From a phage, in the sequence record PZ229304.1: 64,000 nucleotides of DNA; one strand, given 5' to 3'. The stretch's first letter is position 1. Each line of letters starts with the position of its first letter. Positions 8,366 through 61,222 of this stretch are shown piece by piece. The notes beneath the pieces were generated by a model. That model worked only from the letters and a program-made list of their open reading frames with translations. It searched no databases and was not told where the DNA came from. Made by a program: the position numbers and the translations under genes.

Positions 8366-8394
8366 TTGCAATAAGTCTGTTTTTGATGTATACT
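8366..8394 (+). promoter_or_regulatory. sigma70-like promoter
   Basis: TTGCAA - 17 nt - TATACT, followed by a GGAG Shine-Dalgarno and the ATG at 8409. Confidence 0.4.
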
Positions 8395-8408
8395 AAAAAG
8401 GAGATACA

Positions 8409-9474: not shown

Positions 9475-9494
9475 AGTTTCTAACAGGAGCATAA

Positions 9495-23412: not shown

Positions 23413-23420
23413 GAGTAAAA

Positions 23421-34890: not shown

Positions 34891-37710
34891 ATGTATCCTA
34901 TTCCTTTATTTATGTCAACAACATCAGCTTCAGTAGTAACAGCTACATCTATAACCACTTCCTCTATTGGTATTGCAATAGTTGGTAGTAAAAAGCAACT
35001 GACATACACAGTTTCACCGGAAGATGGTGCGTTATTTGATATAGATTTTTCATCTTCAGATAATACCAAAATGGTTATAGATAATAATGGTATGATGGAG
35101 TTTGTTGCTGAAGGTGGTTTTGATGCAATAATGACAGCTAAAAATAATTTAGGTGCTGTCTTAACTGATCAATCTGGTGGTTATGCTTCAGAATTAAGTG
35201 TGTACACTGAAAGTCTATCTGCTATGGATGTAGGCACTACTCAACAGTTGGTTGCTACAATCAGTCCAGAAGGTGCTAAAGACCTTCCAGATATGGTAAT
35301 TACGTACACCACAACAGATCCAGAAGTGGCTACTGTAAGCCCTACAGGATTAATAACTGCTCTTAAAGATGGTAATTGCCGTATAGGTTGTACTGCAACG
35401 TATCAAGGAACAGTTGTGGCCTCTGATAGTTCTTATTTAGGTGTTAATGCTATTCCTGTTATTTCTAATGTAACAGCCGTGGCAAACAGCTATGGAGACG
35501 TTCGTGTTGCTTGGGATGTAGCTGATCCGCTAGATGGTGATACTTATACTGTAGAAGTATTAGATTTAAGTAATAATAGTGTTCAGTGGACTACAACAAC
35601 CACGAATACTCATGCTTACTTTGATATCTCTGACTCTATTCCTCTTTATGGGTTTGCTCCAACATACCTTAAAATTAGCGTTAAGAGCACCAAAGCAGCA
35701 GCCGTTATCTTTAATAACTCAATAGCTACAGATGATTCATTCATTAAAGAAGTTATTGTCTTTGCTGGACAAGATAACGTAAATGCACACTTTACAGAAC
35801 TATCTGGTGCAAATAAAGCAGCAATGAGTAGCACAACAGCCCGTAATGCATATGCTACGCAACGTGGTTTAGCAAATGCTGAAGTTCTTCCGTTAAATAC
35901 AGCTTCTGGATCATCAGCAGCAGATAAATATGCTGACGATAAAGCTGGAACAGGAACACCAGACAACTACTGGTATGATCTGGATAACACAGCAGATGGG
36001 CCATGCTTAACTAACTTTATCACTAAAGTCACACCTTATGCAAGTAAGGTTAAAGCCATTATTTGGGGACAAGGTGAAAATGATGCTGTATCAGCATCTT
36101 CAACTGTTGCAGGTAGATACAGTAACACTACACGTTACCATGATGCTACGATAGCTATCTTTGATAAGATGCGTACAATAGTTCCTGCTTCTCAAGCAAA
36201 AATTGTTTGGCAGATCCTAGGACGTTCTTATTTATATGGTGTAGAAGTCAATGGTGTGGATTGGCAGAAATACAGAAATGTACAAAGAGCCATCTCTACG
36301 GCACGTGATGATGTTATCATTGGTTCTTGGGTAGATGGTGCTGAACGTTACAGTGGTTACGTTTATGAAGAAGGTATTGATGGTCGTATCCATTATATTT
36401 CTTCTGTATACCAGACAGCAGCTACAAAACTTGCTAAATCAGCAGCAGACGGTACAGACCTAACATCAACGTCACCTGTTTGGGTTGATATGGCTGTTCC
36501 AACTGGAGCAACAGCTACTTCCCAACCTAATCAAGATACAATTTTAGCATGGGATGCTCAAGGCTATAGTAAACACTACTTCCGTAATATTAACGTCTTA
36601 ACCGCATCTGTATTAACTGAACAAACGCTTAATACGAACAGTTATACGTTTACCTATGCAGATCAAGTAGCACAATATGGTTTTGCAGCAGGAACTACTA
36701 TATTTGATGTTGCATATTATGACGAAGCAAATGATGTGTTATCTCCTTTAGTACGTTTTAATGTTAACGTTACAGCAGGAACCGAAGAAGATAAACCTGT
36801 CGTGATGGACTATGATTTGACGCAAGAAACTCTCCCATCAGATGTTAAGGTTAATGGTGGGAACTCTTTTGCTCGTGCTTCTGGAGATAAACTTGTAGCC
36901 ACTAACACCTTGGTTGCTCCGTTGGAGTATGTTGGTACTACCCCTGTAGGTAGACGTGTAACAGCTAACACAGCTACACAAATTTTTGTCAACAACGCCT
37001 TAACAAGTGCAAGCCCGTGGGTAAAGACCAACTTAACTGTTGCAGCTTCATCTGATAACTCTCCGGCTGGAACTACTGCTAATGTATTCAAATTAACTCC
37101 GACTACAACCTCTGGTAGTCATATCTTAACTGCAACATATACTAACGCGTACAACATAAATGCCGGACGTAACTGGTCTGCCTCTGTTTTCTTGAAAGCG
37201 AACGGGATTACTAAGGCTAAACTAAGATTAAAAGCAGGAACTGAAGTTAATGAGGGTACTTTTGATTTAGCAGCAGGTACATTCACAGGAAGTGAAGCTA
37301 ATATTATATCTATGGGCAACGGTTGGTATCGTGCTATTCTGCATAAAACAGGGATAGCCAAACAGTCCTTCATAAGTTTTGAAATAATTGCCTTGGATGC
37401 AACTGGTGCAGAGATTTTCGCTGGAAATGGTACTAGTAACCTTGCAGTTTGGTTGCCACAGCTTGAAGGTGCTTCTACAGGAGAAACATCAAAAGCTGGA
37501 TCGCCTTATGTCTGCACATATCCTGGAAATTTAGGAGGAGTATCCTTCACTATACCAAGGAACGGACATACTGGTGTGGATGTTTACTATTCCAACGGAG
37601 ACGTTGTTCGTGACGTATTCTCTGGTACGGCATCTACTTGGACAATAAACTACTCCAGCTTGTACGATTGGGGATCAGTCTTTATTACAGGTTTGAAATA
37701 TTACGACTAA
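34891..37710 (+). CDS. tail fibre protein with Ig-like (BIG2-type) domain and possible SASA/SGNH-like esterase domain
   Basis: 939 aa; BIG2-like segment (VGTTQQLVATISPEG...TYTTTDPEVATVSPTGLITALKDGNCRIGCTA); VIVFAGQDNVNAHF resembles the GQSN motif of sialate-O-acetylesterase-like domains; last gene of the plus-strand block. Confidence 0.45.
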   Translation: MYPIPLFMSTTSASVVTATSITTSSIGIAIVGSKKQLTYTVSPEDGALFDIDFSSSDNTKMVIDNNGMMEFVAEGGFDAIMTAKNNLGAVLTDQSGGYASELSVYTESLSAMDVGTTQQLVATISPEGAKDLPDMVITYTTTDPEVATVSPTGLITALKDGNCRIGCTATYQGTVVASDSSYLGVNAIPVISNVTAVANSYGDVRVAWDVADPLDGDTYTVEVLDLSNNSVQWTTTTTNTHAYFDISDSIPLYGFAPTYLKISVKSTKAAAVIFNNSIATDDSFIKEVIVFAGQDNVNAHFTELSGANKAAMSSTTARNAYATQRGLANAEVLPLNTASGSSAADKYADDKAGTGTPDNYWYDLDNTADGPCLTNFITKVTPYASKVKAIIWGQGENDAVSASSTVAGRYSNTTRYHDATIAIFDKMRTIVPASQAKIVWQILGRSYLYGVEVNGVDWQKYRNVQRAISTARDDVIIGSWVDGAERYSGYVYEEGIDGRIHYISSVYQTAATKLAKSAADGTDLTSTSPVWVDMAVPTGATATSQPNQDTILAWDAQGYSKHYFRNINVLTASVLTEQTLNTNSYTFTYADQVAQYGFAAGTTIFDVAYYDEANDVLSPLVRFNVNVTAGTEEDKPVVMDYDLTQETLPSDVKVNGGNSFARASGDKLVATNTLVAPLEYVGTTPVGRRVTANTATQIFVNNALTSASPWVKTNLTVAASSDNSPAGTTANVFKLTPTTTSGSHILTATYTNAYNINAGRNWSASVFLKANGITKAKLRLKAGTEVNEGTFDLAAGTFTGSEANIISMGNGWYRAILHKTGIAKQSFISFEIIALDATGAEIFAGNGTSNLAVWLPQLEGASTGETSKAGSPYVCTYPGNLGGVSFTIPRNGHTGVDVYYSNGDVVRDVFSGTASTWTINYSSLYDWGSVFITGLKYYD

Positions 37711-37745: not shown

Positions 37746-38177
37746 TTAATCAGTGAAAATTACGCTTACATCTTCTTTAGAAAAGAGTTTATGATCTTCA
37801 CCTTTTGTCTCAAGAGTTTCATACAGGTTAAGAAGTTCTGAAACATCTTTCTCTACCAGTTTCTTCAATGTTGCAATTTTCTGTTTGCGATTCTTAATAC
37901 GTTCAGCTACAACCTTACGTTGGTATCCAGCAGTACGATAACCTGAGAAAGTTACACCAGTGAGACTTGCAGTTACAGGATCGTAATGACGTTCAATCTG
38001 AAATTTATTAAAAGGTACAGCGTCATCACGAATAATCTTCCCGCCATTACTTACTTGACGAAGACCAGTAACTTGTTCTAGTCGTGCCATAGAAATCTTT
38101 GGAGACAGACCAGAGTCCAAGTTCATACCATTGTTAATCAGTGCTTTCAGGGTGATTTTGCTGTTCAGTGTACTCAT
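37746..38177 (-). CDS. hypothetical protein
   Basis: 143-aa ORF; an internal Met at 38126 would avoid overlap with the methyltransferase gene. Confidence 0.3.
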   Translation of the reverse strand: MSTLNSKITLKALINNGMNLDSGLSPKISMARLEQVTGLRQVSNGGKIIRDDAVPFNKFQIERHYDPVTASLTGVTFSGYRTAGYQRKVVAERIKNRKQKIATLKKLVEKDVSELLNLYETLETKGEDHKLFSKEDVSVIFTD

Positions 38178-38865
38178 TTAGTCGTTCCTCCGCTTGCTTA
38201 AAAATATTTACATCGGCTTCACAGCCTAAGTATTCTCTACCTGTTAAAAGTGCCGCAACTTGTGTTGTTGCACTTCCAGAGAAGAAGTCTAAGACTACAT
38301 CTCCTTCGTTGGTGTGTATATTAATAAGGTCACAAAACAAAGTCAAGTGTTTTTGTGTTGGATGAAAACGATCTGCTCCTTGATAGATAGGATACTCAAA
38401 CACACCCTTATGGTAGGAAGCATTGAAGGTTGGCTTAGAACCTTTAACACAAACAATAGCCATTTCTTTAGCGTTACTAAGGTAGTTAACACCACTGTTG
38501 ATGGGTACAGGGTTTGTTTTAATCCATTCGATAGTACGGAACATACGAAAACCAAGCGGTTCAAGGATTTCACGTAGCTCCTGGATCTTCCAGATATCAT
38601 ACCAAACTATGCAAGTACCACCTTTTCTAAGCACCCTGTAGGCTTCTTTGAATACTTCTTTAAAGTAAGGAATATCTACAACATCCCAATCACCAAAGTT
38701 GTAAGATACACGGAATCTATCCGTATCTTTTCCAGTAGGCTCTCCAGACTGAAAATTTGTGTCACGAGAAATAGCATATGGTGGGTCAGTAAGAATCAAA
38801 TCTACACTATTGCTTTCGAGGGTTTGCAAGTAGTTTAATGCGGTGTTGTTTACAAATTCGCTCAT
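38134..38865 (-). CDS. DNA methyltransferase (beta-class, probably N6-adenine)
   Basis: DLILTDPPYA (motif IV) precedes VLDFFSGSATT (SAM-binding motif I); 243 aa; no adjacent restriction endonuclease. Confidence 0.7.
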   Translation of the reverse strand: MSEFVNNTALNYLQTLESNSVDLILTDPPYAISRDTNFQSGEPTGKDTDRFRVSYNFGDWDVVDIPYFKEVFKEAYRVLRKGGTCIVWYDIWKIQELREILEPLGFRMFRTIEWIKTNPVPINSGVNYLSNAKEMAIVCVKGSKPTFNASYHKGVFEYPIYQGADRFHPTQKHLTLFCDLINIHTNEGDVVLDFFSGSATTQVAALLTGREYLGCEADVNIFKQAEERLNEYTEQQNHPESTD

Positions 38866-41557: not shown

Positions 41558-44137
41558 TCAGTGACAAGACGCCCATGAGTTACCAACATCGTAACCAGCA
41601 GTTAGAGGTACATTAAGATTGTAATACTCACCAGCTTTATTAACAGCGATAGATGCTAATTCTCCAGCACGACTGTAGGCTGTAAACCAACCACCTTTAG
41701 GAGATTCATGTACGTTAGCCCAAATCTTGCCAGTACGTTTCTCTTCCTCTTCTTTCCAGGCGTTAACTTTATCCAAACATTCTTTATCAATTTTCTTTTG
41801 TTCTTCTGGATCATCAACTTGAGTCCAACCTAAAGATTCTTTAGAGAACCATTTAAAATGCACCAGATCACGAGTTACTTCAAGCTGCGCTTCATCGTGA
41901 TATGCAATCATTTGTTGAACGAATGACTTATTTTTCCAGTCATCAACAAAAAAGTCAACAGCTAATCCTTCTTCTTCGATAAGATCATCGTAGATAACCA
42001 TTGCTCTTTTTGCACAAATAACACCACCACTCTGGAACAGAGAGTTAAGTATTGCGTGTGCAGATCGTGTAGGTACTTTCCTACCATCAATACCAAGAAT
42101 GTATTTCTTACCTGTTTTAACCCAAAAATCATGCAGACGTTCTTTAAGAAGCGCAAGAGGTTTTGCAGCTTCCCAGAAAGCATCGTATACAAGCTGTCCT
42201 GTATACATATCACTACCAATGGTTTTTGCTACTTTTGCAGCTTGAGCACCATAAGTAATACCATACTTAACAGATTTAGCAGGGCTTCGTTCAAACTTAC
42301 GACCAATAGTATCAGAAATACGTCGAGCCATCATTGTATGAACATCATTAGGTTTTTCCAACAACAGAGCATTACAATATTCGTGTGGTTCCTGCTCGTA
42401 CCGCCAACAGTAGTGTGATTCTATTTTTGCCTCAAGAGAATCAAAGTCATAACCAATTTGGAAGTATTTTGGAACTTCTACACCAAATAAGTTACGCATT
42501 TCATATCCGTACAGAGATGTTACACGTGGGATATTTGCTACTAACCTATGTTTCATACGAGACGTAGCTGCATCACACGTTGCAGCAGGAGTTGGTATAC
42601 GACCATCAGCCCTTACTGCCGCCAGATAACCTTTATCGTAATCCTCTTCATCTTCTTCCCAATCAGCACCACCACCTAGAATAGAGTTTCTACGATGTTT
42701 ATACGTAAGATACTGCACAATCTGCGTAGCATAAGGAAACTTTTCACCTAGTGCTTCCAAGTTAGGACAAATATCCTTCTCTTGCCCTTTTGTAAAGGAA
42801 GGGTTAGTAAGCACTTTAACACCACGACCTTTAGCTTTAGCAATACGATCTCTTAGTTTCCATTCCAAAGTTTCTGGTGTGCACTCCAGATGATCACATC
42901 TATCCTGGCAGAAGTTAGATGCTAATGTTTGATCAACATAGTCACGAATAGCTTTCTCCATTTGTGCTTCATCTTTCTTAATCTTAGTGCCAGATTTAAG
43001 AGTGATATCTTTATCTTTATATTCAGATGGACTCCAACCTAAACCAACTAACCAATTTTTAATATGTGTCGTGTCGTCTAAAGTAGCAGGTACTGTAGGA
43101 TCACAAATAGGTTCTTCTGCTGGAATAGGGAGTTTAAACTCTTTACCTAATGCAAATAACCACCAACCATCTTCTTTTTGTACAAGTTCACCAGAATGTT
43201 TCTCTGCAAACTTTATCATGTTACTTGAAGGTTCACCATTCTTTTTAAACTGTAGTTTAGGTGGAATGAATGATTTCAAATAACCTTTAGTAGCAGGTTT
43301 AGGAGGTAGTACAGGTTCTGCCTCTAAACGACATGCTTCCATTCGAGCATCCAGATCACGAATATTATCTTCTGCTTGTTTCATATTGAAAGCAAAGCCA
43401 CGGTGCTCTTGACGTGTAATAATATCAGCTACACGTTGTTCTAAGTTAAATGGTTCAGACCACTTACTATAATCGCCCCACTCTTCCATCAAATAACGGA
43501 ACACTGCGGTGTTAGCTTTGTTATCGTAAATACAGTAATACAGCATATCTGCTGCAAATGTTCTAAATCTTTCAGTTTCAGGAATGTTTTTTCTGAAATC
43601 AATTTTAACATCCCCTCCAGCTTTCTTAGATAACTCTGCCAGACTATGACCACCGAAGCGATCAGGGTTTAGTGTCTTACTTAAGATCATAGTATCACAA
43701 ATTTCAATGTTACTATTACCCCAAGTATTGTACTTAATACTGTAGTTGAGTTTAAAAAATAATTTAATTGCCAGTAAGTCGAAGTTAATGATGTTGTGTC
43801 CAACTACTTTGGTAATTTTATAGTTTGAATTACCTTTAAATTTACCTGTTCCATTTACAAAATCAGGAAAATCTTTAAGAGGGAAATGGGTATATTCTAA
43901 ATGCTCATATTCCTCCAGTCGGTATTCATACTTTCCGTCAGTCTCAACATATGGACGACCATCGAAAAGATATTTATCACCATCATGGAAAGCAATAATC
44001 TCTCCAGTATCATGACTTTCGCACACAATACAGTGCATTGCAAAACTATCTTTTAAACGATATGGACTTGCCAAGTAATCTACACTTTCGTCATTAAGCA
44101 AGTTGTTACTTTCAATGTCGAAAGTAAAAGCTCCCAT
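41558..44137 (-). CDS. DNA polymerase, family A, with 3'-5' exonuclease domain
   Basis: 859 aa; N-terminal FDIESNN (Exo I, DxE); motif B-like RSPAKSVKYGITYGAQA; motif C-like IAYHDEAQLEV. Confidence 0.8.
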   Translation of the reverse strand: MGAFTFDIESNNLLNDESVDYLASPYRLKDSFAMHCIVCESHDTGEIIAFHDGDKYLFDGRPYVETDGKYEYRLEEYEHLEYTHFPLKDFPDFVNGTGKFKGNSNYKITKVVGHNIINFDLLAIKLFFKLNYSIKYNTWGNSNIEICDTMILSKTLNPDRFGGHSLAELSKKAGGDVKIDFRKNIPETERFRTFAADMLYYCIYDNKANTAVFRYLMEEWGDYSKWSEPFNLEQRVADIITRQEHRGFAFNMKQAEDNIRDLDARMEACRLEAEPVLPPKPATKGYLKSFIPPKLQFKKNGEPSSNMIKFAEKHSGELVQKEDGWWLFALGKEFKLPIPAEEPICDPTVPATLDDTTHIKNWLVGLGWSPSEYKDKDITLKSGTKIKKDEAQMEKAIRDYVDQTLASNFCQDRCDHLECTPETLEWKLRDRIAKAKGRGVKVLTNPSFTKGQEKDICPNLEALGEKFPYATQIVQYLTYKHRRNSILGGGADWEEDEEDYDKGYLAAVRADGRIPTPAATCDAATSRMKHRLVANIPRVTSLYGYEMRNLFGVEVPKYFQIGYDFDSLEAKIESHYCWRYEQEPHEYCNALLLEKPNDVHTMMARRISDTIGRKFERSPAKSVKYGITYGAQAAKVAKTIGSDMYTGQLVYDAFWEAAKPLALLKERLHDFWVKTGKKYILGIDGRKVPTRSAHAILNSLFQSGGVICAKRAMVIYDDLIEEEGLAVDFFVDDWKNKSFVQQMIAYHDEAQLEVTRDLVHFKWFSKESLGWTQVDDPEEQKKIDKECLDKVNAWKEEEEKRTGKIWANVHESPKGGWFTAYSRAGELASIAVNKAGEYYNLNVPLTAGYDVGNSWASCH

Positions 44138-44632: not shown

Positions 44633-46405
44633 TTAATAAGAACCAGCAGGAATATTCTCTGGGTTACTTGTGTATTGATCGTAATCGTGAAGTGTAGCTG
44701 TTTTAATCTCATAGAAGAAACTACCTGCTGCACCAGTCTCTGAGAACTCACGGTTCTTTAGAATGTAGCAATATGTGCGGTTACGCTCCATAGGATCTTC
44801 AGCTTGTTTATCACGCTCCAGCGCAATTGTGATACCAGCACCTTTAGCAAGGAAGCTACTACCCATTGCATCATCTTCTACAATATGCTCATTACTATTG
44901 TTAGAAGACTTTTTAACGTGTGAAATTACAACAATGGTGATTGCGTACTCTTTCATAATGCGTTTGAGCCACGTCGCAAGTTCCTCTTGTTGTGACACGT
45001 CCATACCAGAAAGCAAATCAGAATAAGGGTCGATAACAAGAATGGTTACTCCGAAATAAATAATCATTTCCAGAACCTTCTCTTTAATCACATCTACGTT
45101 AGCTCCACGATCATCACAAACATAGAAACGTGGTGTTCCATCTTCCCGTTCGTAAAAATCACGAATCTTTTCTTCATTATCTTTTAAAATCTTTTCCTTC
45201 TCTTCCTTTGTCTTACGGTGAAGAGGGATATGCAAGAATGAAGACAGTAAGTTACGAGAATACTTCTTATACGTTGCCTCCAAAGATAAAATACCAAGAG
45301 TATGTTCTGGGTGTGCAAGAATAATGTGCTTCGTAATCTCGTTAACCAACAGTGTCTTACCAATACTTGTTTTTGCAAGTATAACAGTAATTTCTTCTTC
45401 TACCAAGCCTCCACCTAACATATTAGAAGCAACACGCATGAATGGAGGAAGTGTGATCATTTTAGCTTCCAAGCATTCCAGGGCTGCTTCATACAGTACG
45501 TTAGAAGCATAAACACCAGCAGGTGTGTACAGTTTAGCTTTGAAAAAGCGATCAATAAAATGATCAATTTTTCCTTCTACTAACGCCTGGTTAGGATCTT
45601 TAACATCCGTTAGCTCCATCACGTAAACTTTATTACGTGGTAAGATTTTAACACATTTCTCAACCGCTGCACGTCCAGCTTCATCATTATCCATACACAG
45701 AACAATCTTTTTAAATTGATCTAAGAATTTATAACGATGTTGAAGCTGTTTATGTAGAGATGTTTCGCCACAAGTACCAGATACTACAGCAGGAACAGGA
45801 TATTTACCACCCTTGTTATAATCTTTTAGCATCTGTGTTGCAGCCAGCATATCGTGTTCACCACCAACGATTAGAATAGTACCGCTGTGGTTACGATATT
45901 TAAACTCACCAAAAAGATCACAATCCTTTCCTGTTTCACCAATAGGATGCGAAAAATCTTTTGGATCAATACGTTGTTTATACCCAGCAATATTGTAATC
46001 TTTAGTTGTAGGGTATAGTGTTGAAATTACTTCGCCAGTGGCTTCATCGTACATATAGCGTACACCGAAAGGTTTAGAGATATCTTCACGAATACCACGA
46101 TAACCTTTTGGATTAGTTCCAGTGCTGGCTTTTAGCTTATCATGCACTTCTGGATTAAACTCACTACCCAAGATATCCTCCTCTTCAATTTCTTCGCCGT
46201 GTGCATTTAACCATTTTTGATCAGGGATAGTAAAGCCACAAGAAAAACAATGTGCGCCTCGATGGTCTTCATCGGCATCTAAGCCATATACCATTAAATT
46301 GTTTTGTGATCGATCACGTCCTCCTTTCATACAACGAGGACACCCAGTATGTCCTTCTTGACTTAGATCAATGTTATACCCATATTTATTTACAACATAA
46401 GACAC
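44633..46405 (-). CDS. DNA primase-helicase (zinc ribbon + TOPRIM + P-loop helicase)
   Basis: 590 aa; N-terminal CPRC...CFSCGF zinc ribbon; TOPRIM-like LCMDNDEAGRAA; Walker A TSIGKT; Walker B-like ILVIDPYSD. Confidence 0.7.
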   Translation of the reverse strand: MSYVVNKYGYNIDLSQEGHTGCPRCMKGGRDRSQNNLMVYGLDADEDHRGAHCFSCGFTIPDQKWLNAHGEEIEEEDILGSEFNPEVHDKLKASTGTNPKGYRGIREDISKPFGVRYMYDEATGEVISTLYPTTKDYNIAGYKQRIDPKDFSHPIGETGKDCDLFGEFKYRNHSGTILIVGGEHDMLAATQMLKDYNKGGKYPVPAVVSGTCGETSLHKQLQHRYKFLDQFKKIVLCMDNDEAGRAAVEKCVKILPRNKVYVMELTDVKDPNQALVEGKIDHFIDRFFKAKLYTPAGVYASNVLYEAALECLEAKMITLPPFMRVASNMLGGGLVEEEITVILAKTSIGKTLLVNEITKHIILAHPEHTLGILSLEATYKKYSRNLLSSFLHIPLHRKTKEEKEKILKDNEEKIRDFYEREDGTPRFYVCDDRGANVDVIKEKVLEMIIYFGVTILVIDPYSDLLSGMDVSQQEELATWLKRIMKEYAITIVVISHVKKSSNNSNEHIVEDDAMGSSFLAKGAGITIALERDKQAEDPMERNRTYCYILKNREFSETGAAGSFFYEIKTATLHDYDQYTSNPENIPAGSY

Positions 46406-46417
46406 ATGATTCTCCTA

Positions 46418-46687
46418 CTAAAATGATTCGTTTGTCTCCATAATATATTGCATTTCCAAATCTTCCATATGTTTCTTAAATTGGTAAACAATTTCCGATG
46501 GGGAAATATCTATATCAAAAAGTTCTTTTGTACCAGAATAAAACCTAATACCATCAACAATAAGACCACCATAATAATCCCAATCACTTTCTCGTGAGAA
46601 AGGATTAGGTTCTTCATAATAGTAATCTACTTCAACAATAATAGGTTCTTTATTATCTTGTTTATACTCAAAATCAAAAGTGTTCAT
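46418..46687 (-). CDS. hypothetical protein
   Basis: 89-aa acidic ORF. Confidence 0.3.
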   Translation of the reverse strand: MNTFDFEYKQDNKEPIIVEVDYYYEEPNPFSRESDWDYYGGLIVDGIRFYSGTKELFDIDISPSEIVYQFKKHMEDLEMQYIMETNESF

Positions 46688-47631
46688 TATAAATCCTCGA
46701 TAAGCAGTCTGCGGGTTTCATTTAAATCATCAATATTGTAGTTATCTCTTACATACTTAGCAAGAGCTAATCCTTTCTCAATACAAACATCAGGAGATTC
46801 GATTAAGTATTCTACAATATCTTTCCACTCTTTAACTGAATCAGCAAAGAAGATTAGATCTTTAAATTCTTCAGTATAATAGTTCTCCCGTGGTGAACAA
46901 ACGAGTGGCAAACCTTTAGCACCAGCTTCAAGAATTTTTAAATTACTTTTGGCATTATTAAAATGATTATTTACTAATGGAGCTATGGAGATTTGATGAC
47001 CATCGTATGCTTCCATATAACACTCATAAGGACGAATACCTTCATAAACACAATCTGGTTGAATATCTTCTTTAATTTGCAACCATTGAGCACTACTTAA
47101 CTCTTCATGATCTCTACGAAATCCACATAAAGTTAAATCTTTACCAAAACTAGGAAGAATAGCTAAATCATGTTTATGTGTTTCACTTCCCGCCCAAACC
47201 AGTGGACTTTTAGAATAACGATCTTTCGTAAGAACAAACTGTCCTTCATCAAAAGGTAGTCCATTAGGCACAATATGTACATTATCATTGTATTGGCTTA
47301 ATTCAACCTTTAATGCTGGAGTTGTTGTAGTTACAAGATCGCTTCTTTCAAGGAACCATTTTAGATCATCTCGGATTTGATTTTCAAATAATCCTTCAAG
47401 CATATGTCCTTCAGGGATAATTAAAGAATCATCCAGATCCATTACCAATTTAAACCCAAGTTGTTTAAGAGCCAGGAAACCTGGCTTTCCACGGGTTGGT
47501 ACTCCATTGAACACAAAAATATTATGCTTAGGATTGATGGTCAGTTTGCGTTTATATGGCAAAATGATTCTATGAAAATCACATACACTATACTTTTCAT
47601 TTCCGCGTGTGTCAAGAATAATATTAGGCAT
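46687..47631 (-). CDS. glycosyltransferase (GT-B-like), paralogue A
   Basis: 314 aa; C-terminal NAKSNLKILEAGAKGLPLVCSP resembles the GT1/GT4 donor-binding motif; clear paralogue of the adjacent gene. Confidence 0.45.
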   Translation of the reverse strand: MPNIILDTRGNEKYSVCDFHRIILPYKRKLTINPKHNIFVFNGVPTRGKPGFLALKQLGFKLVMDLDDSLIIPEGHMLEGLFENQIRDDLKWFLERSDLVTTTTPALKVELSQYNDNVHIVPNGLPFDEGQFVLTKDRYSKSPLVWAGSETHKHDLAILPSFGKDLTLCGFRRDHEELSSAQWLQIKEDIQPDCVYEGIRPYECYMEAYDGHQISIAPLVNNHFNNAKSNLKILEAGAKGLPLVCSPRENYYTEEFKDLIFFADSVKEWKDIVEYLIESPDVCIEKGLALAKYVRDNYNIDDLNETRRLLIEDL

Positions 47632-47642
47632 ATCGCTCCTTA

Positions 47643-48617
47643 TTAAAGACTTTCAATAACTTGACGACGCAGTTCATTGGCATCTGCAAGATTATAATTA
47701 AGACGAACGTGTTCTGCAAGCATCATACCACGATCTTCTGTGTATCTAGGGTTTCTCATTAGCTTCACAACTTCATAATGCCAAGATGCTTTAGAGTCTG
47801 CATAGATAACAGCCTTTGCATCTACCGGATTGAAGTACGGCAGCACAGGAGAACAGATAATAGGAAGACCCTTTGCACCTGCTTCCAAAATCTTCAAATT
47901 GCTTTTACAGTTGTTGAAGTCATTATCTACCAGAGGAGCAATTGCAATACTGTGACCGTCATACACAGACATATACTCACCTAAATTTTTAATAGCTGGT
48001 TTATACTGTGCATTTGGAATTTTACGTTTTACTTTAACCCACTCCGCAGTAGTTAGATACTGACTATTATTTCCAACAGGTGCAGAAGGATACACTTCAT
48101 ACCCTGCAATTGTCAATAGTGTATCATCAAATGTATTAGCTACAAGAGATAAATCAGGTTCATGGCTTGCTCCTCCAGCCCAAATAATAGGCGTGTCAGA
48201 ATAACGGTCTTTTGTCAAAGTAAATTGACCTTCGTCGTAAGGTAGTGCGTTTCTAATAACGACAACATTACGATTTAAATGACGAATTTTGTAAGCTAGG
48301 TATTCTGTTGTTACTGTAACAACATCTGCTAACTTAACCATTTCTACAATAGTCTTTGAATGATTAGTAAATACGCCAGCCATATAATGTTCAGGATTAA
48401 GTGAATAAAAGTCATCTAAATCAACAATAATCTTAACACCTTGTGCCTTCAGGCGTTTAACTTCGTCTGCTCCATGAGAATACACTCTATTAAAAACTAA
48501 AACGTCTTTCTTAGGTTTAAACGTATTTCCAGCAAATGGCATTACAATACGATGGTAATCACAACCACTGCCTAACTTATTATCACACTTAAGTACAGGA
48601 GTATTAGGATTTACCAT
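47643..48617 (-). CDS. glycosyltransferase (GT-B-like), paralogue B
   Basis: C-terminal NCKSNLKILEAGAKGLPIICSP. ORF track starts at 48656; the Met at 48617 has a GAGGAGG RBS and minimal overlap with the upstream gene. Confidence 0.45.
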   Translation of the reverse strand: MVNPNTPVLKCDNKLGSGCDYHRIVMPFAGNTFKPKKDVLVFNRVYSHGADEVKRLKAQGVKIIVDLDDFYSLNPEHYMAGVFTNHSKTIVEMVKLADVVTVTTEYLAYKIRHLNRNVVVIRNALPYDEGQFTLTKDRYSDTPIIWAGGASHEPDLSLVANTFDDTLLTIAGYEVYPSAPVGNNSQYLTTAEWVKVKRKIPNAQYKPAIKNLGEYMSVYDGHSIAIAPLVDNDFNNCKSNLKILEAGAKGLPIICSPVLPYFNPVDAKAVIYADSKASWHYEVVKLMRNPRYTEDRGMMLAEHVRLNYNLADANELRRQVIESL

Positions 48618-49290
48618 ATTTTTGAGCCTCCTCATAAGAGATAAAAGTTTTACCATTGCGAAGATCCTCCAGTGATTGTTTATATTGTTCCCAGTTTACA
48701 CCAATCCCCTGTTCTTTCTCTTCTTTTGACAGATTCGCAAAAGGTAAAGGATTGTCTCCAAACACATCGTCAGGATGGATAAACGCCATAATTCGAATAG
48801 GACATGGTACGCCTGGAATACCTCGGTTCAAACCTGCCAGCGGAACGCGCTGAATCCACTCTGCATCTTCATATCCATAACCGTGGGTGTATGAGCGGAA
48901 ATAGCCAGCTTTCTCAATAACTGCACGGGAATACATACCAAACTGGCACATCCCTAGTTCCCAAATAACCACTTCCCCTTCAATACCTTTTACTTTATCT
49001 TTAAAGTATTCAGGCATACCAAAGAAATCCCAACCATTTTCCTTCGCCTGTTTTACAAAATATGTTTCCCAACCTTGAACAACAGGATAACAATCATCAT
49101 CAAAAATAAACCAGTAATCATACCCTTCATCATAAAACTTTTTCATCAGTTCATTACGAGCATATGCAACACCTTTTCGTTCCCGATCATACTGTACAAC
49201 AAAAGTAGCATTAGGATCAGTCACAAGATAGTCTTTAAGAGGACGCTTACCTACAGTAATAACACCAACACCAATTTTTGTATTTTCCAA
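48604..49290 (-). CDS. putative glycosyltransferase (GT-A-like, DxD)
   Basis: 228 aa; WFIFDDDCYP acidic DxD-type motif; same operon as the GT-B pair. Confidence 0.35.
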   Translation of the reverse strand: MENTKIGVGVITVGKRPLKDYLVTDPNATFVVQYDRERKGVAYARNELMKKFYDEGYDYWFIFDDDCYPVVQGWETYFVKQAKENGWDFFGMPEYFKDKVKGIEGEVVIWELGMCQFGMYSRAVIEKAGYFRSYTHGYGYEDAEWIQRVPLAGLNRGIPGVPCPIRIMAFIHPDDVFGDNPLPFANLSKEEKEQGIGVNWEQYKQSLEDLRNGKTFISYEEAQKYGKS

Positions 49291-49299
49291 AATAACTCC

Positions 49300-49863
49300 T
49301 TAAATAATTTTATTCATGTCTTGACAATGTAAAAGGTGTGAAACAGCTTTTCTAGGATCATCGTTACCTAAACGGTAGGTGTGAAATAAATATAACCCAC
49401 GTAGTAAACCTAGCCTTTTATTGTTAGCGTGTAATGCTTTAGAGAAAATTATATCAAACTGTATTGATCTTTCCTCAAAAGGGATTTCATTCCACAGACT
49501 CTTACGAAAGAGAAGAAAGAATCCTGCTAAGATAGCATCTGTAGGTACTTCCTCTATTGAGTTTCCCCATTCTAGATGTGCTCTTTTTGCAATCTCAATG
49601 TGGTGTAATATATTTGGATCTTCACTTCTTTCATTATTAAATAATTGATATGTTGATCCCAATCTATTACAAGATGCACCAAGAACATCAAAATCAGGAT
49701 TTGAACGAACTATTGATTCCAGCCAAGCAGGTTGTTCTGGAAGAAGAAACATTGTATCAATGTCTCTTAGGCAAATCCAACTATCTTCTGGTAAGACACT
49801 TATTGTGTCATTGATACCTTTTCCAATATCTCCAGAAAGATAGGGAGTTATGTGAAATATCAT
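49300..49863 (-). CDS. hypothetical protein, possibly nucleotide-sugar transferase-like
   Basis: 187 aa; CLRDIDTMF DxD-like motif; first gene of the glycosyltransferase block. Confidence 0.25.
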   Translation of the reverse strand: MIFHITPYLSGDIGKGINDTISVLPEDSWICLRDIDTMFLLPEQPAWLESIVRSNPDFDVLGASCNRLGSTYQLFNNERSEDPNILHHIEIAKRAHLEWGNSIEEVPTDAILAGFFLLFRKSLWNEIPFEERSIQFDIIFSKALHANNKRLGLLRGLYLFHTYRLGNDDPRKAVSHLLHCQDMNKII

Positions 49864-49920
49864 ACTCCCTCCGTATTATTACTTTAGCATTTTTAGACTA
49901 AAAAGTCCAAATGGTTTTAC

Positions 49921-50115
49921 CTATTGATTACGTTTTGCGAGTTCCATTTGGATAGCTAAACTGTGATCTCGTGCTTCCATATACTCTTTATATGTTTCAT
50001 TAAGATGATCACGACAAACATCACGCAGTTTAATCAGTTTATCTGTAGGGATACCACTAAGATCATCCCAAGATTTTACAACTTCACCAGTATCATTGAT
50101 CCCAATGGTTTTCAT
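49921..50115 (-). CDS. hypothetical small protein
   Basis: 64-aa ORF. Confidence 0.25.
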   Translation of the reverse strand: MKTIGINDTGEVVKSWDDLSGIPTDKLIKLRDVCRDHLNETYKEYMEARDHSLAIQMELAKRNQ

Positions 50116-50611: not shown

Positions 50612-51121
50612 TTAGCGATAGAATTGATGTTCTTTGTAGCGGTACACTAGAACCATATCTTTTTCCCAGTGTGCTCTTATTGTAGATTTTTTAAAGTATA
50701 ATGCTCCTTTTGTAATATCTAATGCAATTCGTAATTCTGGAAAATGCGTATCGAGATAAAGTAGACGTTCTGCTATAGCCTTAGCTTCCTTCCACTTATC
50801 ACGTTCCATAACGTTGAATGTCTTTGTGTAAGAGAATTGTCCTTTTTGAAACAAAACTTCTTTTATAGTATCAGGGAAATATGAATCTCTAGCCCTATTC
50901 AATACTACATTACCAACAGCAGACATACCGCGCTTTCCTTGATTACGACTTTCTGCATAGATTGCACAAGCTAATAGATTTTCTTTACTATCACGCTTTG
51001 TACACTTGTGAACTACTTTAGCAGTTTTTACGTTTGCAGCTTCGGCTTGCGCCACAACAGGTGTAAATGTAAAAGCAGTTAAGGATAGTAACGCAATTGC
51101 GACAAAGGTTTTTATTGACAA
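50612..51121 (-). CDS. secreted SleB-like cell-wall hydrolase (candidate endolysin)
   Basis: 169 aa; N-terminal signal peptide MSIKTFVAIALLSLTAFTFTPVVAQA; AIYAESRNQ...GMSAVGNVVLNRARD matches the SleB / Hydrolase_2 family. Confidence 0.5.
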   Translation of the reverse strand: MSIKTFVAIALLSLTAFTFTPVVAQAEAANVKTAKVVHKCTKRDSKENLLACAIYAESRNQGKRGMSAVGNVVLNRARDSYFPDTIKEVLFQKGQFSYTKTFNVMERDKWKEAKAIAERLLYLDTHFPELRIALDITKGALYFKKSTIRAHWEKDMVLVYRYKEHQFYR

Positions 51122-51880: not shown

Positions 51881-52477
51881 TTACTCGAACCAATCGTCGC
51901 CAGCGCCAAACGCTTTAACTACATCGTAAATGTCAAGCCCAGCTTTACCTACACCATATGCTTTCAGTTTCCATTCGCTATCTTCTCGCACCAGGGAGGC
52001 AACGTGGCAAATGGTGTTACCTGCAAGTTCTGGAGCCAAGAAGTCAAAGTCCAGCAGTTCAACATTACGTTCATCATCGAAGATTTTAAGGAAACCTTCG
52101 GTAGCGTGACCAAGGCGTTTCTTACCCGTTTCGTCATCAATAGTAATTACGAATGCAATTTCCTGTGCTTCAGCAGAGATATTATCCAGTGTAACATCAA
52201 TCTGCTCCATCTGTCCTACACCATCACGAACATCTTCACCTGCAAAAGTAGAACGTTCAGGATCAAATTTCTGCGCGTAGCACACCAGGTGACGAGGAGA
52301 CAACAGTTCCGGCAGACCAGATGCATTGTGTCGGCAAATCAGAGCACTAACATCCAGATCCAGTTTTTCGTTAGATTTCCAAGAGAATTCCAGACGAATG
52401 CGTTTCAGTGCTGGTGCGATCTTTTTCAGAGAAACTTTTTCGCTAGAACCTTTTTTCAGGGAAATTTTCTGAGTCAT
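51881..52477 (-). CDS. terD: TerD-family protein (tellurite-resistance / stress-response family)
   Basis: 198 aa; N-terminal MTQKISLKKGSSEKVSLKK is the typical TerD start; acidic Ca-binding-like segments (FAGEDVRDG, ITIDDETG). Confidence 0.6.
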   Translation of the reverse strand: MTQKISLKKGSSEKVSLKKIAPALKRIRLEFSWKSNEKLDLDVSALICRHNASGLPELLSPRHLVCYAQKFDPERSTFAGEDVRDGVGQMEQIDVTLDNISAEAQEIAFVITIDDETGKKRLGHATEGFLKIFDDERNVELLDFDFLAPELAGNTICHVASLVREDSEWKLKAYGVGKAGLDIYDVVKAFGAGDDWFE

Positions 52478-52549: not shown

Positions 52550-53344
52550 TTACGCTTTTGCTCCGAATTTTTTAACCCACTCACCAAACTCTTCGGATAG
52601 CAGTTTATCGTAAAGTTCTTCGTCAGACAAGGACAAATCTGCAATACCGATAAAATCAACATTATCGTATTCTTTTGCCAAGTCTTTCAAGAATTTAAAG
52701 TTTGCATTACCTACACCAACCATAAACCAGTAAACAGGAGTGTTGCGGTGTTTGTTCAGCAAACTACGTACTGCTGAAGTATCCATGTTCTCCCCGTCAG
52801 TTTGGAAGAAAATCATTGCAGGAGTACGATCAACTTGTGCATCAGTATCTACAACCTGCTCTACAACAGTACGTGTTACTTCTACAAGTTCTTTTTTACC
52901 AGTTAGTTTAGCAAGGAAACCTTTAGCCGGAACTTCTTCATACTCAACGACTTCGCGTGTAATATTTTTCATAGGTACACTACCGAAGTATGTATCATAG
53001 ATCTCTTGCATTACTGGAGCATAGGCTGTACCACCGTTGATGCAAACATTAGACATGCAAGAGCCGACATAATCATCATACACATCAGCCGTTGCAGGAG
53101 GCAGTTCAAAAGAAGAACTATTGAAAGCCCACATGTCAATCTGTGCATTATCATCAAACTTCATACCAAACGGCAGCAGTTTACCTACAAAATCACTAAC
53201 AGTGCCATCACGATATAGCTCACACATACTACCCGAAATATCTAAGGCGCTACCGACACGAAGAACAACATCGTTAATCTTTTTCTTACGCAGAGATACA
53301 GTAAGAGTTTCTTGACGTTTTTTAAGACTGATTTTATTGGACAT
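52550..53344 (-). CDS. vWA-domain protein with TerD-like N-terminal tag (TerY-like)
   Basis: 264 aa; N-terminal SNKISLKK; MIDAS-like LDISGSM and downstream TDGEN motifs. Confidence 0.55.
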   Translation of the reverse strand: MSNKISLKKRQETLTVSLRKKKINDVVLRVGSALDISGSMCELYRDGTVSDFVGKLLPFGMKFDDNAQIDMWAFNSSSFELPPATADVYDDYVGSCMSNVCINGGTAYAPVMQEIYDTYFGSVPMKNITREVVEYEEVPAKGFLAKLTGKKELVEVTRTVVEQVVDTDAQVDRTPAMIFFQTDGENMDTSAVRSLLNKHRNTPVYWFMVGVGNANFKFLKDLAKEYDNVDFIGIADLSLSDEELYDKLLSEEFGEWVKKFGAKA

Positions 53345-54371: not shown

Positions 54372-54604
54372 TACACATTCTCCTCTTTTACCAATTCCAT
54401 CGTTGAACTATCAAAACCATCTTTAGAAGAATAGGTATAGACAGAACGTAGTTCGCGCAGGACAGTGAATACATTAGGATCATCTAACCAAGCATCCTGG
54501 AGGAGAACATAACGATCTTCATTGTCGTACTGGACAGCAATCATAGAACCAGACAGTTTGTAAATTTTAATATTCATAATATATTTCTCCTTAAAGTAGA
54601 CCAC
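54371..54604 (-). CDS. hypothetical small protein
   Basis: 77-aa ORF with stop/start overlap to neighbours. Confidence 0.3.
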   Translation of the reverse strand: MVYFKEKYIMNIKIYKLSGSMIAVQYDNEDRYVLLQDAWLDDPNVFTVLRELRSVYTYSSKDGFDSSTMELVKEENV

Positions 54605-55694
54605 GTTTAACAGTTTGAATCATGCCATCTTCAAGAGATTGCACTTCTTGAATGTAATCAATACGAGCAGCACGGGCTTCAGTGTTGATTCGGTTAGTTT
54701 CTTCCAACATTTTAACTAAGTTTTCTTGATCACGACGTAATGTTTCAATATCCAACACTTGACGATTAGCAAGTTGTGTAGCTTCAATTTGGTTTTGTGC
54801 AGCAAGATCACTACCCATTGCAATAGCAGCATTAAATTCATTCAGTACATTGTTCTGTGTATCGGCTGCTTTCTTCTGGCGTAGACTTTCAATATACATA
54901 GAAAAGTTTGCAGAGTAAGCAGGAATAACATTATTCACAATATTACGGGCTGATCGCATCAAACTTGCAGATACTTTCTGCATACTTTGTACACGTGGCC
55001 CCATCTGAACACACAGTAAGCGTAGGGCTTTCAGGTCTGCAATACGAATTTCAAGCAGATCCATAGTATCACGAGTACGTTGACGCTCTTCTACCTCATT
55101 TTCAGGCAGTGTATTAAGGCGAACTTCTTCTTTTTCATAAGTAGCTGTTAGAAGCTCTATATCTCTGTTTAAGCTAAGAGCATATTTGGCAATAGCCTCT
55201 TCTAAACGTTGCAGATATCGTAAAGAATCTTCTTCTTTTTTCAAGTCTGTTTGGAGTGTCTTTACCAAACCTTCAATACGATTATTGATGGTGTCAAATT
55301 CTCCAAACAAATCTTCTTTCATACCTAATACTTTCTTAACTAACTTACCTAAACCTTTAGATTGTTTAATAGAATTAGGATCAAGTTGCTTTGCTTGCTT
55401 AATAAGTGCAGTTAAACGTTCACTCATTTCATCTCCCTGAGATGAACGCTGGTGTTTAAGCACTTCAGCATTAAGGTTACGAAGAGTAAGTCCTGCATCA
55501 GCACCAACCTGTTCAATCTCTTCACGAGACATTGGAGGCAGCATTTGTACAGGTCGTGCAACAGCAGGGGCATATACAGGACTTGCATCCATAGCAGTTG
55601 GAGCAAACAAAGACTTACTTTTTTCTGTTGTTGCCGTGAATACACTCATTTCAGACGGTTTGCTTTTTACGGCACTGATAAAAGGACTGGACAT
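54591..55694 (-). CDS. TelA-like (toxic anion resistance / KlaA-like) protein, putative
   Basis: 367 aa, predominantly helical coiled coil; size and operon context with TerD/TerC; no discrete motif verified. Confidence 0.4.
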   Translation of the reverse strand: MSSPFISAVKSKPSEMSVFTATTEKSKSLFAPTAMDASPVYAPAVARPVQMLPPMSREEIEQVGADAGLTLRNLNAEVLKHQRSSQGDEMSERLTALIKQAKQLDPNSIKQSKGLGKLVKKVLGMKEDLFGEFDTINNRIEGLVKTLQTDLKKEEDSLRYLQRLEEAIAKYALSLNRDIELLTATYEKEEVRLNTLPENEVEERQRTRDTMDLLEIRIADLKALRLLCVQMGPRVQSMQKVSASLMRSARNIVNNVIPAYSANFSMYIESLRQKKAADTQNNVLNEFNAAIAMGSDLAAQNQIEATQLANRQVLDIETLRRDQENLVKMLEETNRINTEARAARIDYIQEVQSLEDGMIQTVKRGLL

Positions 55695-59006: not shown

Positions 59007-59722
59007 TTATTTCAGTTTGTAAACAATTACATTTAAACCTTTGTTCACTAGAGTTTCTTCGATCATAAGTTTTACAATATTCCAAGAACCTCCAGCCAAA
59101 CCACAACCAAGCATTGGTAAACCTACAATTTTACCGCCTGAAGATACAACATCGTCTCCCATACTATCTAACGCATTGTAGATAGCTTCATAATCCAGGT
59201 CACGCTTACCTTCCTCACGACGACTATAACCATATTGTCCATATAAATTATAAATTGTCAAATTGTTTTCTGTATACTTAGTAAACGTACCTAATTTTTT
59301 ATAATCACCACGTTTAGTGGCACAATCTGCTTTAAACGCACCAGGCCACTTGCTTTTAATTTTTGGTGCAATACCACTACCCATAGTGCAAAAACAGTTA
59401 CAGCAGTGTGCTATAGCGTCTATATCGCCTCTCTCGGCTGCTGCTAAAAGATCACCGTATACCTCAATGATACCTGCTGGATAACTTGTTACAATTTCAT
59501 CTTCCCAATACATTTTCTCTACACCACCGATCAGTGCAAAGTTTTGTGTAATGCGATCATCAATATAGTTAAGACCTGAAACATACACAGCATATTCATC
59601 CTGTGCTGTAATGCCTTGTACACGAATTCTTAAGACACCATCTTTATCTGTTGCTACGCGCCCAAAATCTTTTTCTGTAATATTGGTGATAGGATCTCCG
59701 AAAGTCATTACTTTATTAGACA
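59007..59722 (-). CDS. macro-domain-like protein (ADP-ribose binding / processing), putative
   Basis: Probable start is the MSNKVMTF Met. DAIAHCCNCFCTMGSGIAPKI and IVGLPMLGCGLAGGSW resemble the two Gly-rich macro-domain motifs. Confidence 0.4.
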
Positions 59723-60573
59723 TAATAATCCCCTTTAACATTAGATTTGTTGATAATGTTGCTTTCAAAAAATTGACGCAGGAAATCAAAGTTCTCTTTG
59801 TATTTTTCAATATTATTGTAACCTTCTGCAAGGCAACCAAAGAACAGTTGTTCTACATAATACAAAGGAAGTTGTGAAAGTGCAATTTTAAAATCAACTT
59901 CGCTTTGACTCATTAGATACTTAATAGGACGAACCAAACATTTAGCATCAGTTTCTTGCTTAATCATTTTAATAAAAGCTGCCAGGTTATTGATATAGTT
60001 GAAGTTAAGTGCAGCTTCGGTGTTGGCTTCTGTACCTTCATACTTTGCAAAGTACAGGAAAAACGTATCGTTTTCAACACCTTCTTTGTCTAAAATTTCA
60101 ATAAGTTTTTCTTCGTGTGTTCCTGTAATATTAACATCATCAATGAAAATCAGAGTTTTATTACCCCAGAAATCACGATTGATAGAGAAAGTGTCACCAT
60201 CGATCAAAGCCTTACGATCTTCTTTGCTAAGAAATCCATAATCATTGATATAACTCACTTTACGATGAACGATATCCCACTCCACTGCTTTACCTCCTTT
60301 GATAGAGATTAGGTAGTTGAGGTGATCTACAAAATGCTCAGATAACACTGTAGCTGCATTTTTCACATAATTATATGGAGATGGAATAACAACAAAACTT
60401 TCATTTACTAGTCGTTCTTCATATTTAGAAAAGAAACTTTCAGCCAGAATGCGTCCCATTCTTTTTGCTGCCTGGTTACTGCCAAACTTTAGTTTGGAAT
60501 AATCTGCAATGTTAAATTTTGCTTCCTTCAGGTTAGTAAAAGTATTAGCAAAATGTTGAATTTGATTACGCAT
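59716..60573 (-). CDS. phosphoribosyltransferase (type I PRTase fold)
   Basis: 285 aa; LIFIDDVNITGTH matches the PRPP-binding motif (hydrophobic-DD-x-x-TG-x-T). Confidence 0.55.
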   Translation of the reverse strand: MRNQIQHFANTFTNLKEAKFNIADYSKLKFGSNQAAKRMGRILAESFFSKYEERLVNESFVVIPSPYNYVKNAATVLSEHFVDHLNYLISIKGGKAVEWDIVHRKVSYINDYGFLSKEDRKALIDGDTFSINRDFWGNKTLIFIDDVNITGTHEEKLIEILDKEGVENDTFFLYFAKYEGTEANTEAALNFNYINNLAAFIKMIKQETDAKCLVRPIKYLMSQSEVDFKIALSQLPLYYVEQLFFGCLAEGYNNIEKYKENFDFLRQFFESNIINKSNVKGDYYV

Positions 60574-61222
60574 TAATAAGTTCCTCTTTTTTAAGTTTAG
60601 CCAACAAGTCTTCTGGATTAATAATATGACAGAACTTCATCCCTATGTCAACAGCTTTTCCATCATAAATCAAACTATCTCCAACGTGTAAAATCTCCTC
60701 TGGTGCGAGATCAAACGTTACCATTTCATCAAAAGAGAGTTTAAAAAACCTAGGATCTGGTTTACACAAGCAAAACTCGTCAGAAAAATGCATAAAGTCG
60801 AATGGTAATTTTGTTAAACCAGAATATACAGCTAAGAAACTACCTGGTACAAAATTAGTATTACTCTTAATACTCAAAGAGTAGGTTGAACTTAGCTCTT
60901 CCAACTTCTTGCAAAGTTCAGGATTCAATGTTGGAGGATGTTTTATAAACATTGCTAAACAGTCTCTTTTTAACCCATCCACTTTATCAAGATCAATATT
61001 CAAATGAGTAGAAAGTGTTTCCCAAGCATTCCTAGACGTTCCACAAATTCCTTTTTCTGCTTTTAAATCCAGGAGAGTTTTTACCTCTTTATATACGGTA
61101 GCTGCTTCTGCTTCAGAACAAGAGGCATACTCGGCAATAACCTTGTTGCGTTCTTCTGCATACAAAGGATTAGCAGTAATAAGAGTATTCCATACATCAA
61201 AAGAAATATGCTTAACAGTCAT
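60566..61222 (-). CDS. HAD-superfamily hydrolase (phosphatase-like)
   Basis: Motif I-like ISFDVWNTLI near N-terminus and motif IV-like VGDSLIYD; likely start at the MTVKHISF Met with GGAGG RBS. Confidence 0.5.
   Translation of the reverse strand: MTVKHISFDVWNTLITANPLYAEERNKVIAEYASCSEAEAATVYKEVKTLLDLKAEKGICGTSRNAWETLSTHLNIDLDKVDGLKRDCLAMFIKHPPTLNPELCKKLEELSSTYSLSIKSNTNFVPGSFLAVYSGLTKLPFDFMHFSDEFCLCKPDPRFFKLSFDEMVTFDLAPEEILHVGDSLIYDGKAVDIGMKFCHIINPEDLLAKLKKEELINA

Follow-up and report, generated by a model that had tools for sequence, protein, structure and literature searches.

A conserved block of four glycosyltransferase genes beside the replication genes of phi92-like phages: a candidate module for glycosylation of proteins rather than DNA

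Phage-encoded sugar transferases have been described in several settings. The T-even DNA glucosyltransferases (alpha-gt and beta-gt of phage T4; GT-B fold) and the TET-associated glycosyltransferases (TAGT; GT-A fold) are encoded among replication genes. Temperate phages alter a surface glycan of their hosts through serotype-converting GtrABC systems, membrane proteins that use undecaprenyl-phosphate sugars in the periplasm. Giant viruses with capsid or fibril glycosylation use UDP-L-rhamnose and infect eukaryotes, and HMW1C, Aah, and TibC are dedicated cytoplasmic glycosyltransferases encoded beside their adhesin substrates (HMW1, AIDA-I, and TibA, respectively). In mycobacteriophages such as Che8 (gp108-110), Rita (gp101), and Ramsey (gp106), several soluble GT-A transferases are encoded outside the structural operon, and glycans on the virion act as a shield, changing how antibodies recognize the particle. 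A genome announcement states second-hand that glycans are present on the major capsid protein of Che8 and Rita (Freeman et al. 2023, via PMC11256854 and PMC13445384). Here we compare with these systems a block of four glycosyltransferase genes, which we name GT1 to GT4, in a window of 64,000 nucleotides (nt) of sequence record PZ229304.1 (the whole stretch analyzed, one strand, 5′ to 3′; unless stated otherwise, coordinates are window positions). We found that the block is real and conserved as a glycan-assembly module and that hypermodification of DNA bases by its products is not supported. The comparative context points to an acceptor other than DNA, and we favor a protein, most likely of the virion, at a likelihood somewhat short of even.

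An earlier note on this window, made from the sequence alone, had described three to four glycosyltransferase-like genes next to the replication genes, directly upstream of primase-helicase and polymerase. All four genes are confirmed, and both the gene calls and the position given for the block are correct. On the minus strand, the order of transcription is GT4 (49863..49300), GT3 (49290..48604), GT2 (48656..47643), GT1 (47631..46687), an acidic open reading frame (ORF) of 89 amino acids (aa) whose start overlaps the GT1 stop (46687..46418), a primase-helicase with Toprim_2 and DnaB_C domains (46405..44633), a 131-aa ORF, and a family-A DNA polymerase (44137..41558). Gaps in the block range from −53 to +12 nt, an operon-like packing, and no terminator-like site was found between the transferase block and the replication genes. 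Transmembrane-like segments are absent from GT1 to GT4 (maximum Kyte-Doolittle 19-mer mean, ≤1.21).

The block and its flanks (46400-50000) are 98 to 99.3% identical to 56 of the 57 matching records, all of which are phi92-like Escherichia myophages of the genus Justusliebigvirus (subfamily Stephanstirmvirinae). The top matches are vB_Eco_PATM (99.3%), PD114, and the BASEL phages JohannJBalmer (Bas62; 99.0%) and EmilieFrey. Two of the four products are labeled “putative disaccharide synthase” and two “putative glycosyltransferase” in the Bas62 record, and RefSeq records use “glycosyltransferase” for all four. The genes have already been annotated and discussed in two papers, and the observation of the block itself is not new. 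Host labels look doubtful for several further matches with 70 to 99.5% identity to these coliphage genes: a number are filed under “Campylobacter phage” (e.g., MG065639 and MG065689), one under “Serratia phage,” and another under “Pseudomonas phage.”

GT1 (314 aa) and GT2 (337 aa as listed) align from end to end with 40% identity (E = 7e−82) and have SNLKILEAGAKGLP in common (at 46947-46906 in GT1 and 47903-47862 in GT2), which bears out the tandem GT-B-like paralogous pair with a near-identical C-terminal motif reported in the earlier note. For these two proteins, we use the class label “GT-B-type (GT4-like),” in which “GT4” does not refer to the gene GT4 of the block. GT1 passes the gathering cut-off of the Pfam model Glyco_trans_1_2 (26.8 bits versus 25). 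GT2 alone stays below the cut-off with Glyco_trans_1_2 and Glyco_trans_1_4 (14.9 and 17.9 bits), and many homologues of the pair carry precomputed PF13524 assignments. GT2 corresponds to PHROG 7162 and has an isoelectric point of 8.8. With a profile of the GT1/GT2 family, there are weak hits (E ~0.01) to TreT and MshA, in each case to the C-terminal domain. In an alignment of 37 sequences of this GT-B family, R21, D67, D68 (the last two in the DLDD motif, residues 65-68 of GT1), N123, H152, and D155 are invariant in the N-terminal half, as are K228, S229, K232, and E235 in the C-terminal half. The EX7E and L-E-A-x-A-x-G-x-P patterns define the C-terminal nucleotide-sugar-binding motif of GT4-like GT-B enzymes. 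Both GT1 and GT2 contain LEAGAKGLP, which fits the latter pattern; in the EX7E region of the family, the second Glu is kept and the first is not conserved. Together, these features predict that GT1 and GT2 are GT4-like glycosyltransferases of the GT-B fold. The longest GT2 ORF, which is the form taken in GenBank annotations, overlaps GT3 by 53 nt. The true start is probably the third in-frame ATG (48617; 324 aa), because GAGGAGG precedes it and the commonest homologue has the same length.

GT3 and GT4 are the DxD-type transferase-like genes of the earlier note. Both encode proteins of the GT-A fold with a conserved DxD metal/nucleotide motif, and the fold classes of the four proteins are as that note had claimed. 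GT3 (228 aa) has F-D-D-D at 49104-49093 and a Y-G-Y-E-D motif, and GT4 (187 aa), a minimal GT-A-fold glycosyltransferase, has its DxD (D34-I-D36) at 49764-49756. None of the four proteins matched NCBIfam, and GT4 also has no Pfam model. Searched against solved structures as single sequences and as family profiles, GT3 and GT4 gave no informative hits, and the GT-B family gave hits at no better than E ~0.01. A BFVD fold search with GT3 led to nothing more specific than GT-A proteins of viruses, generic or unnamed.

Could the four enzymes glycosylate phage DNA? The earlier note had suggested anti-restriction glycosylation of DNA bases, and Olsen et al. (2020) proposed rhamnosylation of hydroxymethylated nucleotides (PMC7552041). 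If so, DNA bases would be the acceptor, either globally or at rare specific sites, and the modification would protect against DNA-targeting defenses. The location of the cluster directly upstream of primase-helicase and polymerase is in line with this idea. The T4 beta-gt gene is likewise located in the replication region of its genome, though beside its hydroxymethylase gene 42. GT3 weakly matches PHROG 842 (beta-glucosyl-HMC-alpha-glucosyltransferase) and TAGT (PF20691; E = 4e−5), but the TAGT match is below the gathering cut-off (24.1 versus 27.5 bits) and is limited to 62 residues around the DxD (residues 16-77, profile positions 37-98 of 205).

An anti-restriction role is contradicted by what has been published on the phenotypes of near-identical phages. 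Maffei et al. found Vequintavirinae and their relatives, including phi92-like phages, to be “exceptionally susceptible” to restriction-modification, even though the phi92-like ones have a “putative dTDP glycosylation machinery” (PMC8594841). In their raw plating data, Bas62 yielded 2.4e7 plaque-forming units on the vector control and 2.5e6 on the EcoKI host (a ~10-fold drop), and the cells for EcoRI, EcoRV, and EcoP1 read 1e−06, which we take as below detection, that is, no plaques. In the study of Picton et al., only five phages were BREX sensitive, and PATM and “Pau” are two of them (~10^7-fold reduction; PMC8565348); we equate “Pau” with Paula, a phage from the same Durham collection. The other 13 restricted phages in that study were hit by BrxU, which cuts DNA with 5-methylcytosine, 5-hydroxymethylcytosine (5hmC), and glucosyl-5hmC, and neither PATM nor Paula is in that set (PMC8565348). 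Judged by these phenotypes, the phage DNA is not globally modified.

The gene content points the same way. Known pyrimidine hydroxymethylases derive from the ThyA family, and no ThyA-family dCMP/dUMP hydroxymethylase was found in the Bas62 genome, in which the sole thymidylate synthase found is of the ThyX type (PF02511, TIGR02170). No TET/JBP dioxygenase is among the annotations of the curated Bas62 record, whose hypothetical proteins were not all scanned. The T4 beta-glucosyltransferase is unrelated to the GT1/GT2 family profile (hhalign probability, 1.2%). The block resembles the T-even and TAGT systems in its location among replication genes and differs from them in having no sequence relationship to beta-gt, in a TAGT score below the cut-off, in the lack of a detected base-hydroxylating partner, and in DNA that is fully restrictable. 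Four transferases also exceed the need of any known DNA sugar modification, and relatives of the families occur in adhesin operons and head modules (see below). Because the window encodes an N6_N4 DNA methyltransferase (38134-38865, annotated as Dam-like in Bas62), ordinary methylation is the evident DNA modification. Nothing supports a rare, site-specific sugar modification of DNA, and we regard DNA bases as a very improbable acceptor. For these phages, the “dTDP glycosylation machinery” that the literature has twice raised as a DNA anti-restriction device is not supported in that role. The Bas62 “thymidylate synthase” itself (6762-8333 of the stretch examined) is a divergent ThyX (37 bits with Pfam Thy1, far below the TIGR02170 cut-off), and its gene adjoins a gene for an NT5C-like deoxynucleotidase.

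Each transferase family is small and nearly all phage-borne (57 clusters at 90% identity for GT1, 18 for GT3, and 47 for GT4). The cluster is kept across the Stephanstirmvirinae examined: in Phapecoctavirus, the whole four-gene block is syntenic together with the small ORF and the primase-helicase, and the more distant Klebsiella phage phi1_175008 has only a gene resembling GT4 and one GT-B gene. A metagenomic relative combines a gene resembling GT3 with one GT-B gene and a 4,6-dehydratase gene. Homologues of the 89-aa ORF also occur in Vequintavirinae, e.g., in PVP-SE1 (gp007), where they lie in the replication region with no glycosyltransferases nearby. Because the ORF is found there without the transferases, we assign it to the replication backbone and regard the transferase block as an insertion specific to Stephanstirmvirinae. 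As a glycan carrier or acceptor, the ORF was rejected, since its homologues are in phages without the cluster.

About 70 kb from the cluster and outside the window, Bas62 encodes RmlA, RmlB, RmlC, and RmlD, all of which pass NCBIfam equivalog cut-offs (TIGR01207, 474.5 versus 360.7; TIGR01181, 441.7 versus 365.1; TIGR01221, 259.8 versus 155.8; TIGR01214, 254.9 versus 224.1). With RmlC as the tblastn query, the numbers of close (55) and intermediate (77) records equal those for GT4, in a comparison of counts and not of record identities. The co-occurrence of the rml genes suggests that dTDP-L-rhamnose is probably the donor of at least one step.

The relatives of the transferases invite comparison with other glycosylation systems. 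A tblastn search with GT3 retrieved 341 Mycobacterium phage records. GT3 is homologous over the full domain to the N-terminal domains of Ramsey gp106 and Rita gp101 (hhalign probability, 99.3%; E = 7e−21 and 3e−20, respectively), and FDDDCYP and (W/Y)G(W/x)E motifs occur in all three proteins. Both mycobacteriophage proteins (478 aa) are encoded at the right end of the genome, which in cluster F phages is the place for glycosyltransferase genes. Like the mycobacteriophage system, the block has several soluble GT-A transferases encoded outside the structural operon, and one of them, GT3, is a genuine homologue of the N-terminal domains of these two proteins. Methyltransf_24, the domain fused to Che8 gp108, also accompanies relatives of GT4. 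Unlike in that system, the phage here is a 146-kb lytic myovirus of a Gram-negative host, and its cluster has two GT-B enzymes and no methyltransferase and is accompanied by a full rmlABCD set. The likeness to giant viruses (PBCV-1 A064R, Mimivirus R655 and R699, and virus-encoded rhamnose synthesis) is at the level of fold only.

Several of the relatives lie beside structural genes. Cultured relatives of GT4 outside Stephanstirmvirinae include Cellulophaga siphophages. In Cellulophaga phage phi18:2, gp39 joins a C-terminal half resembling GT4 to a TOD1/MUCI70 glycosyltransferase-like N-terminal domain, and its gene lies between genes for a minor capsid protein and a Methyltransf_24 protein on one side and those for a prohead protease and the major capsid protein on the other. 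In a metagenomic phage, the genes between terminase and portal include a GT4 relative, a GT2, two Methyltransf_24 genes, and a polysaccharide deacetylase; a large island in another one unites a GT4 relative with GT-D-like, TOD1/MUCI70, DegT aminotransferase, dehydratase, and Methyltransf_24 genes; and on a further phage contig, two GT-B genes are accompanied by a GT2, a DegT gene, and genes for a radical-SAM enzyme and a dehydratase. Streptomyces phage KimJongPhill gp6 is a full-length member of the GT-B family (hhalign E = 3e−32) with the same N-terminal motifs, and its gene follows those for a UDP-glucose dehydrogenase and a methyltransferase and directly precedes terminase. Four Pseudomonas genomes pair an orthologue of GT3 (39% identity, E = 2e−66) with a GT-B gene (37 to 38% identity). 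At the locus examined, that of P. silvicola, the pair (6625-9557 of the stretch used) lies where the late/structural region of a lambdoid prophage begins: NinG and a small Big_2 protein rich in Thr and Ser precede it, and a phage metallopeptidase, the terminase subunits (small and large), and the portal follow.

In Burkholderia dolosa and Trinickia, where the chromosomal surroundings are not those of a phage, the GT-B gene closes a three-gene unit that starts with an inverse autotransporter (intimin/invasin-type) and continues with a conserved protein of ~560 aa. These adhesins have IAT_beta, Invasin_D3, and Big_1 domains. This arrangement is like that of HMW1C, Aah, and TibC, with the adhesin as the presumed substrate on the ground of adjacency alone. 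In local tblastn searches, neither the Pseudomonas Big_2 protein nor the Burkholderiaceae partner proteins had a significant match in the window.

By their gene content, these neighborhoods are multi-enzyme glycan islands, often with sugar-tailoring enzymes, that recur beside structural or adhesin genes. Because they do so in hosts with unlike envelopes, the pattern favors a protein acceptor over DNA and over lipid-linked glycans that are specific to a host. The N-terminal, acceptor-side motifs of the GT-B family are kept from Escherichia coli phages to Streptomyces phages, which agrees better with an acceptor chemistry held in common, for instance protein, than with envelope glycans that differ from host to host.

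The contexts of the relatives also bear on the possibility that the transferases act at the inner membrane face on lipid-linked glycans of the host (lipopolysaccharide [LPS] core, enterobacterial common antigen [ECA], or O-antigen/capsule intermediates). By remodeling or capping its own receptors in this way, the phage could achieve superinfection exclusion or lose fewer progeny to trapping on debris. This explanation stays credible because phi92-like phages recognize ECA and LPS core, and phage-encoded glycosylation that alters a surface glycan has a precedent in GtrABC. However, the four proteins are soluble, with no membrane anchor and no Gtr-type membrane component among the four ORFs, and serotype conversion would be less useful to a strictly lytic phage. 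Moreover, the family is present in phages of Streptomyces, Mycobacterium, and Cellulophaga and in Pseudomonas prophages, whose hosts have no common envelope acceptor, and several of the relatives lie inside head-assembly modules. On balance, we consider an envelope glycan an unlikely acceptor, albeit the main rival to a protein.

We propose that the block is a phage-encoded cytoplasmic glycan-assembly module, in which the two GT-B enzymes GT1 and GT2 and the two DxD GT-A enzymes would act one after the other and assemble a short oligosaccharide on a macromolecule other than DNA, with dTDP-L-rhamnose from the phage's own RmlABCD feeding at least one of the steps. Modeled on virion glycosylation in mycobacteriophages and giant viruses, the likeliest acceptors would be virion structural proteins (capsid, tail, Ig-like-domain fibers, or decoration proteins). 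The comparative evidence points in the direction of what the earlier note had offered as its fallback, modification of virion proteins or host surface polysaccharide, and its interpretation is, overall, partly supported.

Several observations weigh against this proposal. The GT-B fold of GT1 and GT2 is assigned from sequence alone. A glycan on a phi92-like virion protein would be a prediction from the contexts of relatives, and these independent contexts amount to a handful. Gp108-110 of Che8, the enzymes studied by experiment, were considered and rejected as direct homologues of GT3 and GT4, to which they have no specific relation, and the statement about the Rita glycan is second-hand. E. 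coli phage JEP7, of unassigned taxonomy here, reportedly gives no glycostain signal, and we did not use it as evidence. According to a published genome comparison, Phapecoctavirus ESCO37 is without rmlA and rmlB. The tail sheath (9495-10901) has a Ser/Asn-rich low-complexity C-terminal tail, NRTANSQNSNSSTVSS, which was rejected as a correlate of an acceptor: it is absent in the cluster-bearing Phapecoctavirus, where the sheath ends in NRTAN, and the sheath tails of rV5 and Certrevirus differ as well. Finally, the cluster sits in a replication-gene block and not in a structural module. Its position is uninformative about the acceptor, because clusters of the Che8 type are also located outside the structural operon.

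In its most specific form, the proposal would make the block a candidate for the first virion-glycosylation system in a phage of a Gram-negative host, one that makes its own dTDP-L-rhamnose and uses four transferases to place an oligosaccharide on capsid, tail, or an Ig-like fiber. GT1 and GT2 would then represent an unrecognized class of protein glycosyltransferases common to phages of Proteobacteria and Actinobacteria and to Burkholderiaceae adhesin operons. We hold this version to be possible but doubtful. A lateral tail fiber encoded in the window (34891-37710) has a Big_2 Ig-like domain (E = 2.6e−14). Ig-like-domain proteins also neighbor genes of the GT1/GT2 family in the Pseudomonas prophages and Burkholderiaceae adhesin operons, and we treat the fiber match as a lead and not as evidence.

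The acceptor could also be a nonstructural phage or host protein, with a role in take-over or anti-defense, or RNA, or a small nucleoside-like metabolite made by nearby genes. At 2 to 11 kb upstream of the block and on the same strand are genes for TerD (51881-52477), a vWA-TerF-like protein (52550-53344), TelA (54591-55694), a Macro-domain protein (59007-59741), a ComF-like phosphoribosyltransferase (59716-60573), and a HAD hydrolase (60566-61222). This set resembles the bacterial “Ter stress-response/nucleoside-like metabolite” gene sets. The Burkholderiaceae context suggests that the GT-B family can serve a protein that is not of phage origin. On the other hand, Ter genes were not detected near the Pseudomonas, Streptomyces, and Cellulophaga members within the stretches examined, and we know of no precedent for these families in small-molecule glycosylation. 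We therefore keep such acceptors as a residual category and judge them to be quite unlikely. A Ter-type gene set is in itself an unusual cargo in a lytic phage.

The nature of the acceptor matters because phi92-like and phAPEC8-like phages have a very broad host range and are candidates for phage therapy. If a rhamnose-containing coat or remodeling of the host surface were true, immunogenicity, clearance, stability, and host recognition would be affected, and glycosylation of the phage's proteins would extend the phenomenon to Gram-negative systems. Independently of the acceptor, three poorly annotated transferase families are now defined.

Two further loci deserve mention. A SleB-type cell-wall hydrolase (Pfam Hydrolase_2; 50612-51121, minus strand) with a signal-peptide-like N terminus, MSIKTFVAIALLSLTAFTFTPVVAQA, is encoded ~750 bp upstream of the transferase block and is distinct from the main endolysin, which is annotated elsewhere in Bas62. 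Outside the window, at 21255-23953 of the Bas62 stretch examined, a gene for a phosphoribosyl pyrophosphate synthetase-like protein adjoins a nicotinamide phosphoribosyltransferase gene, a pair that resembles the NAD+ reconstitution pathways of phages that have been reported to counter host defense.

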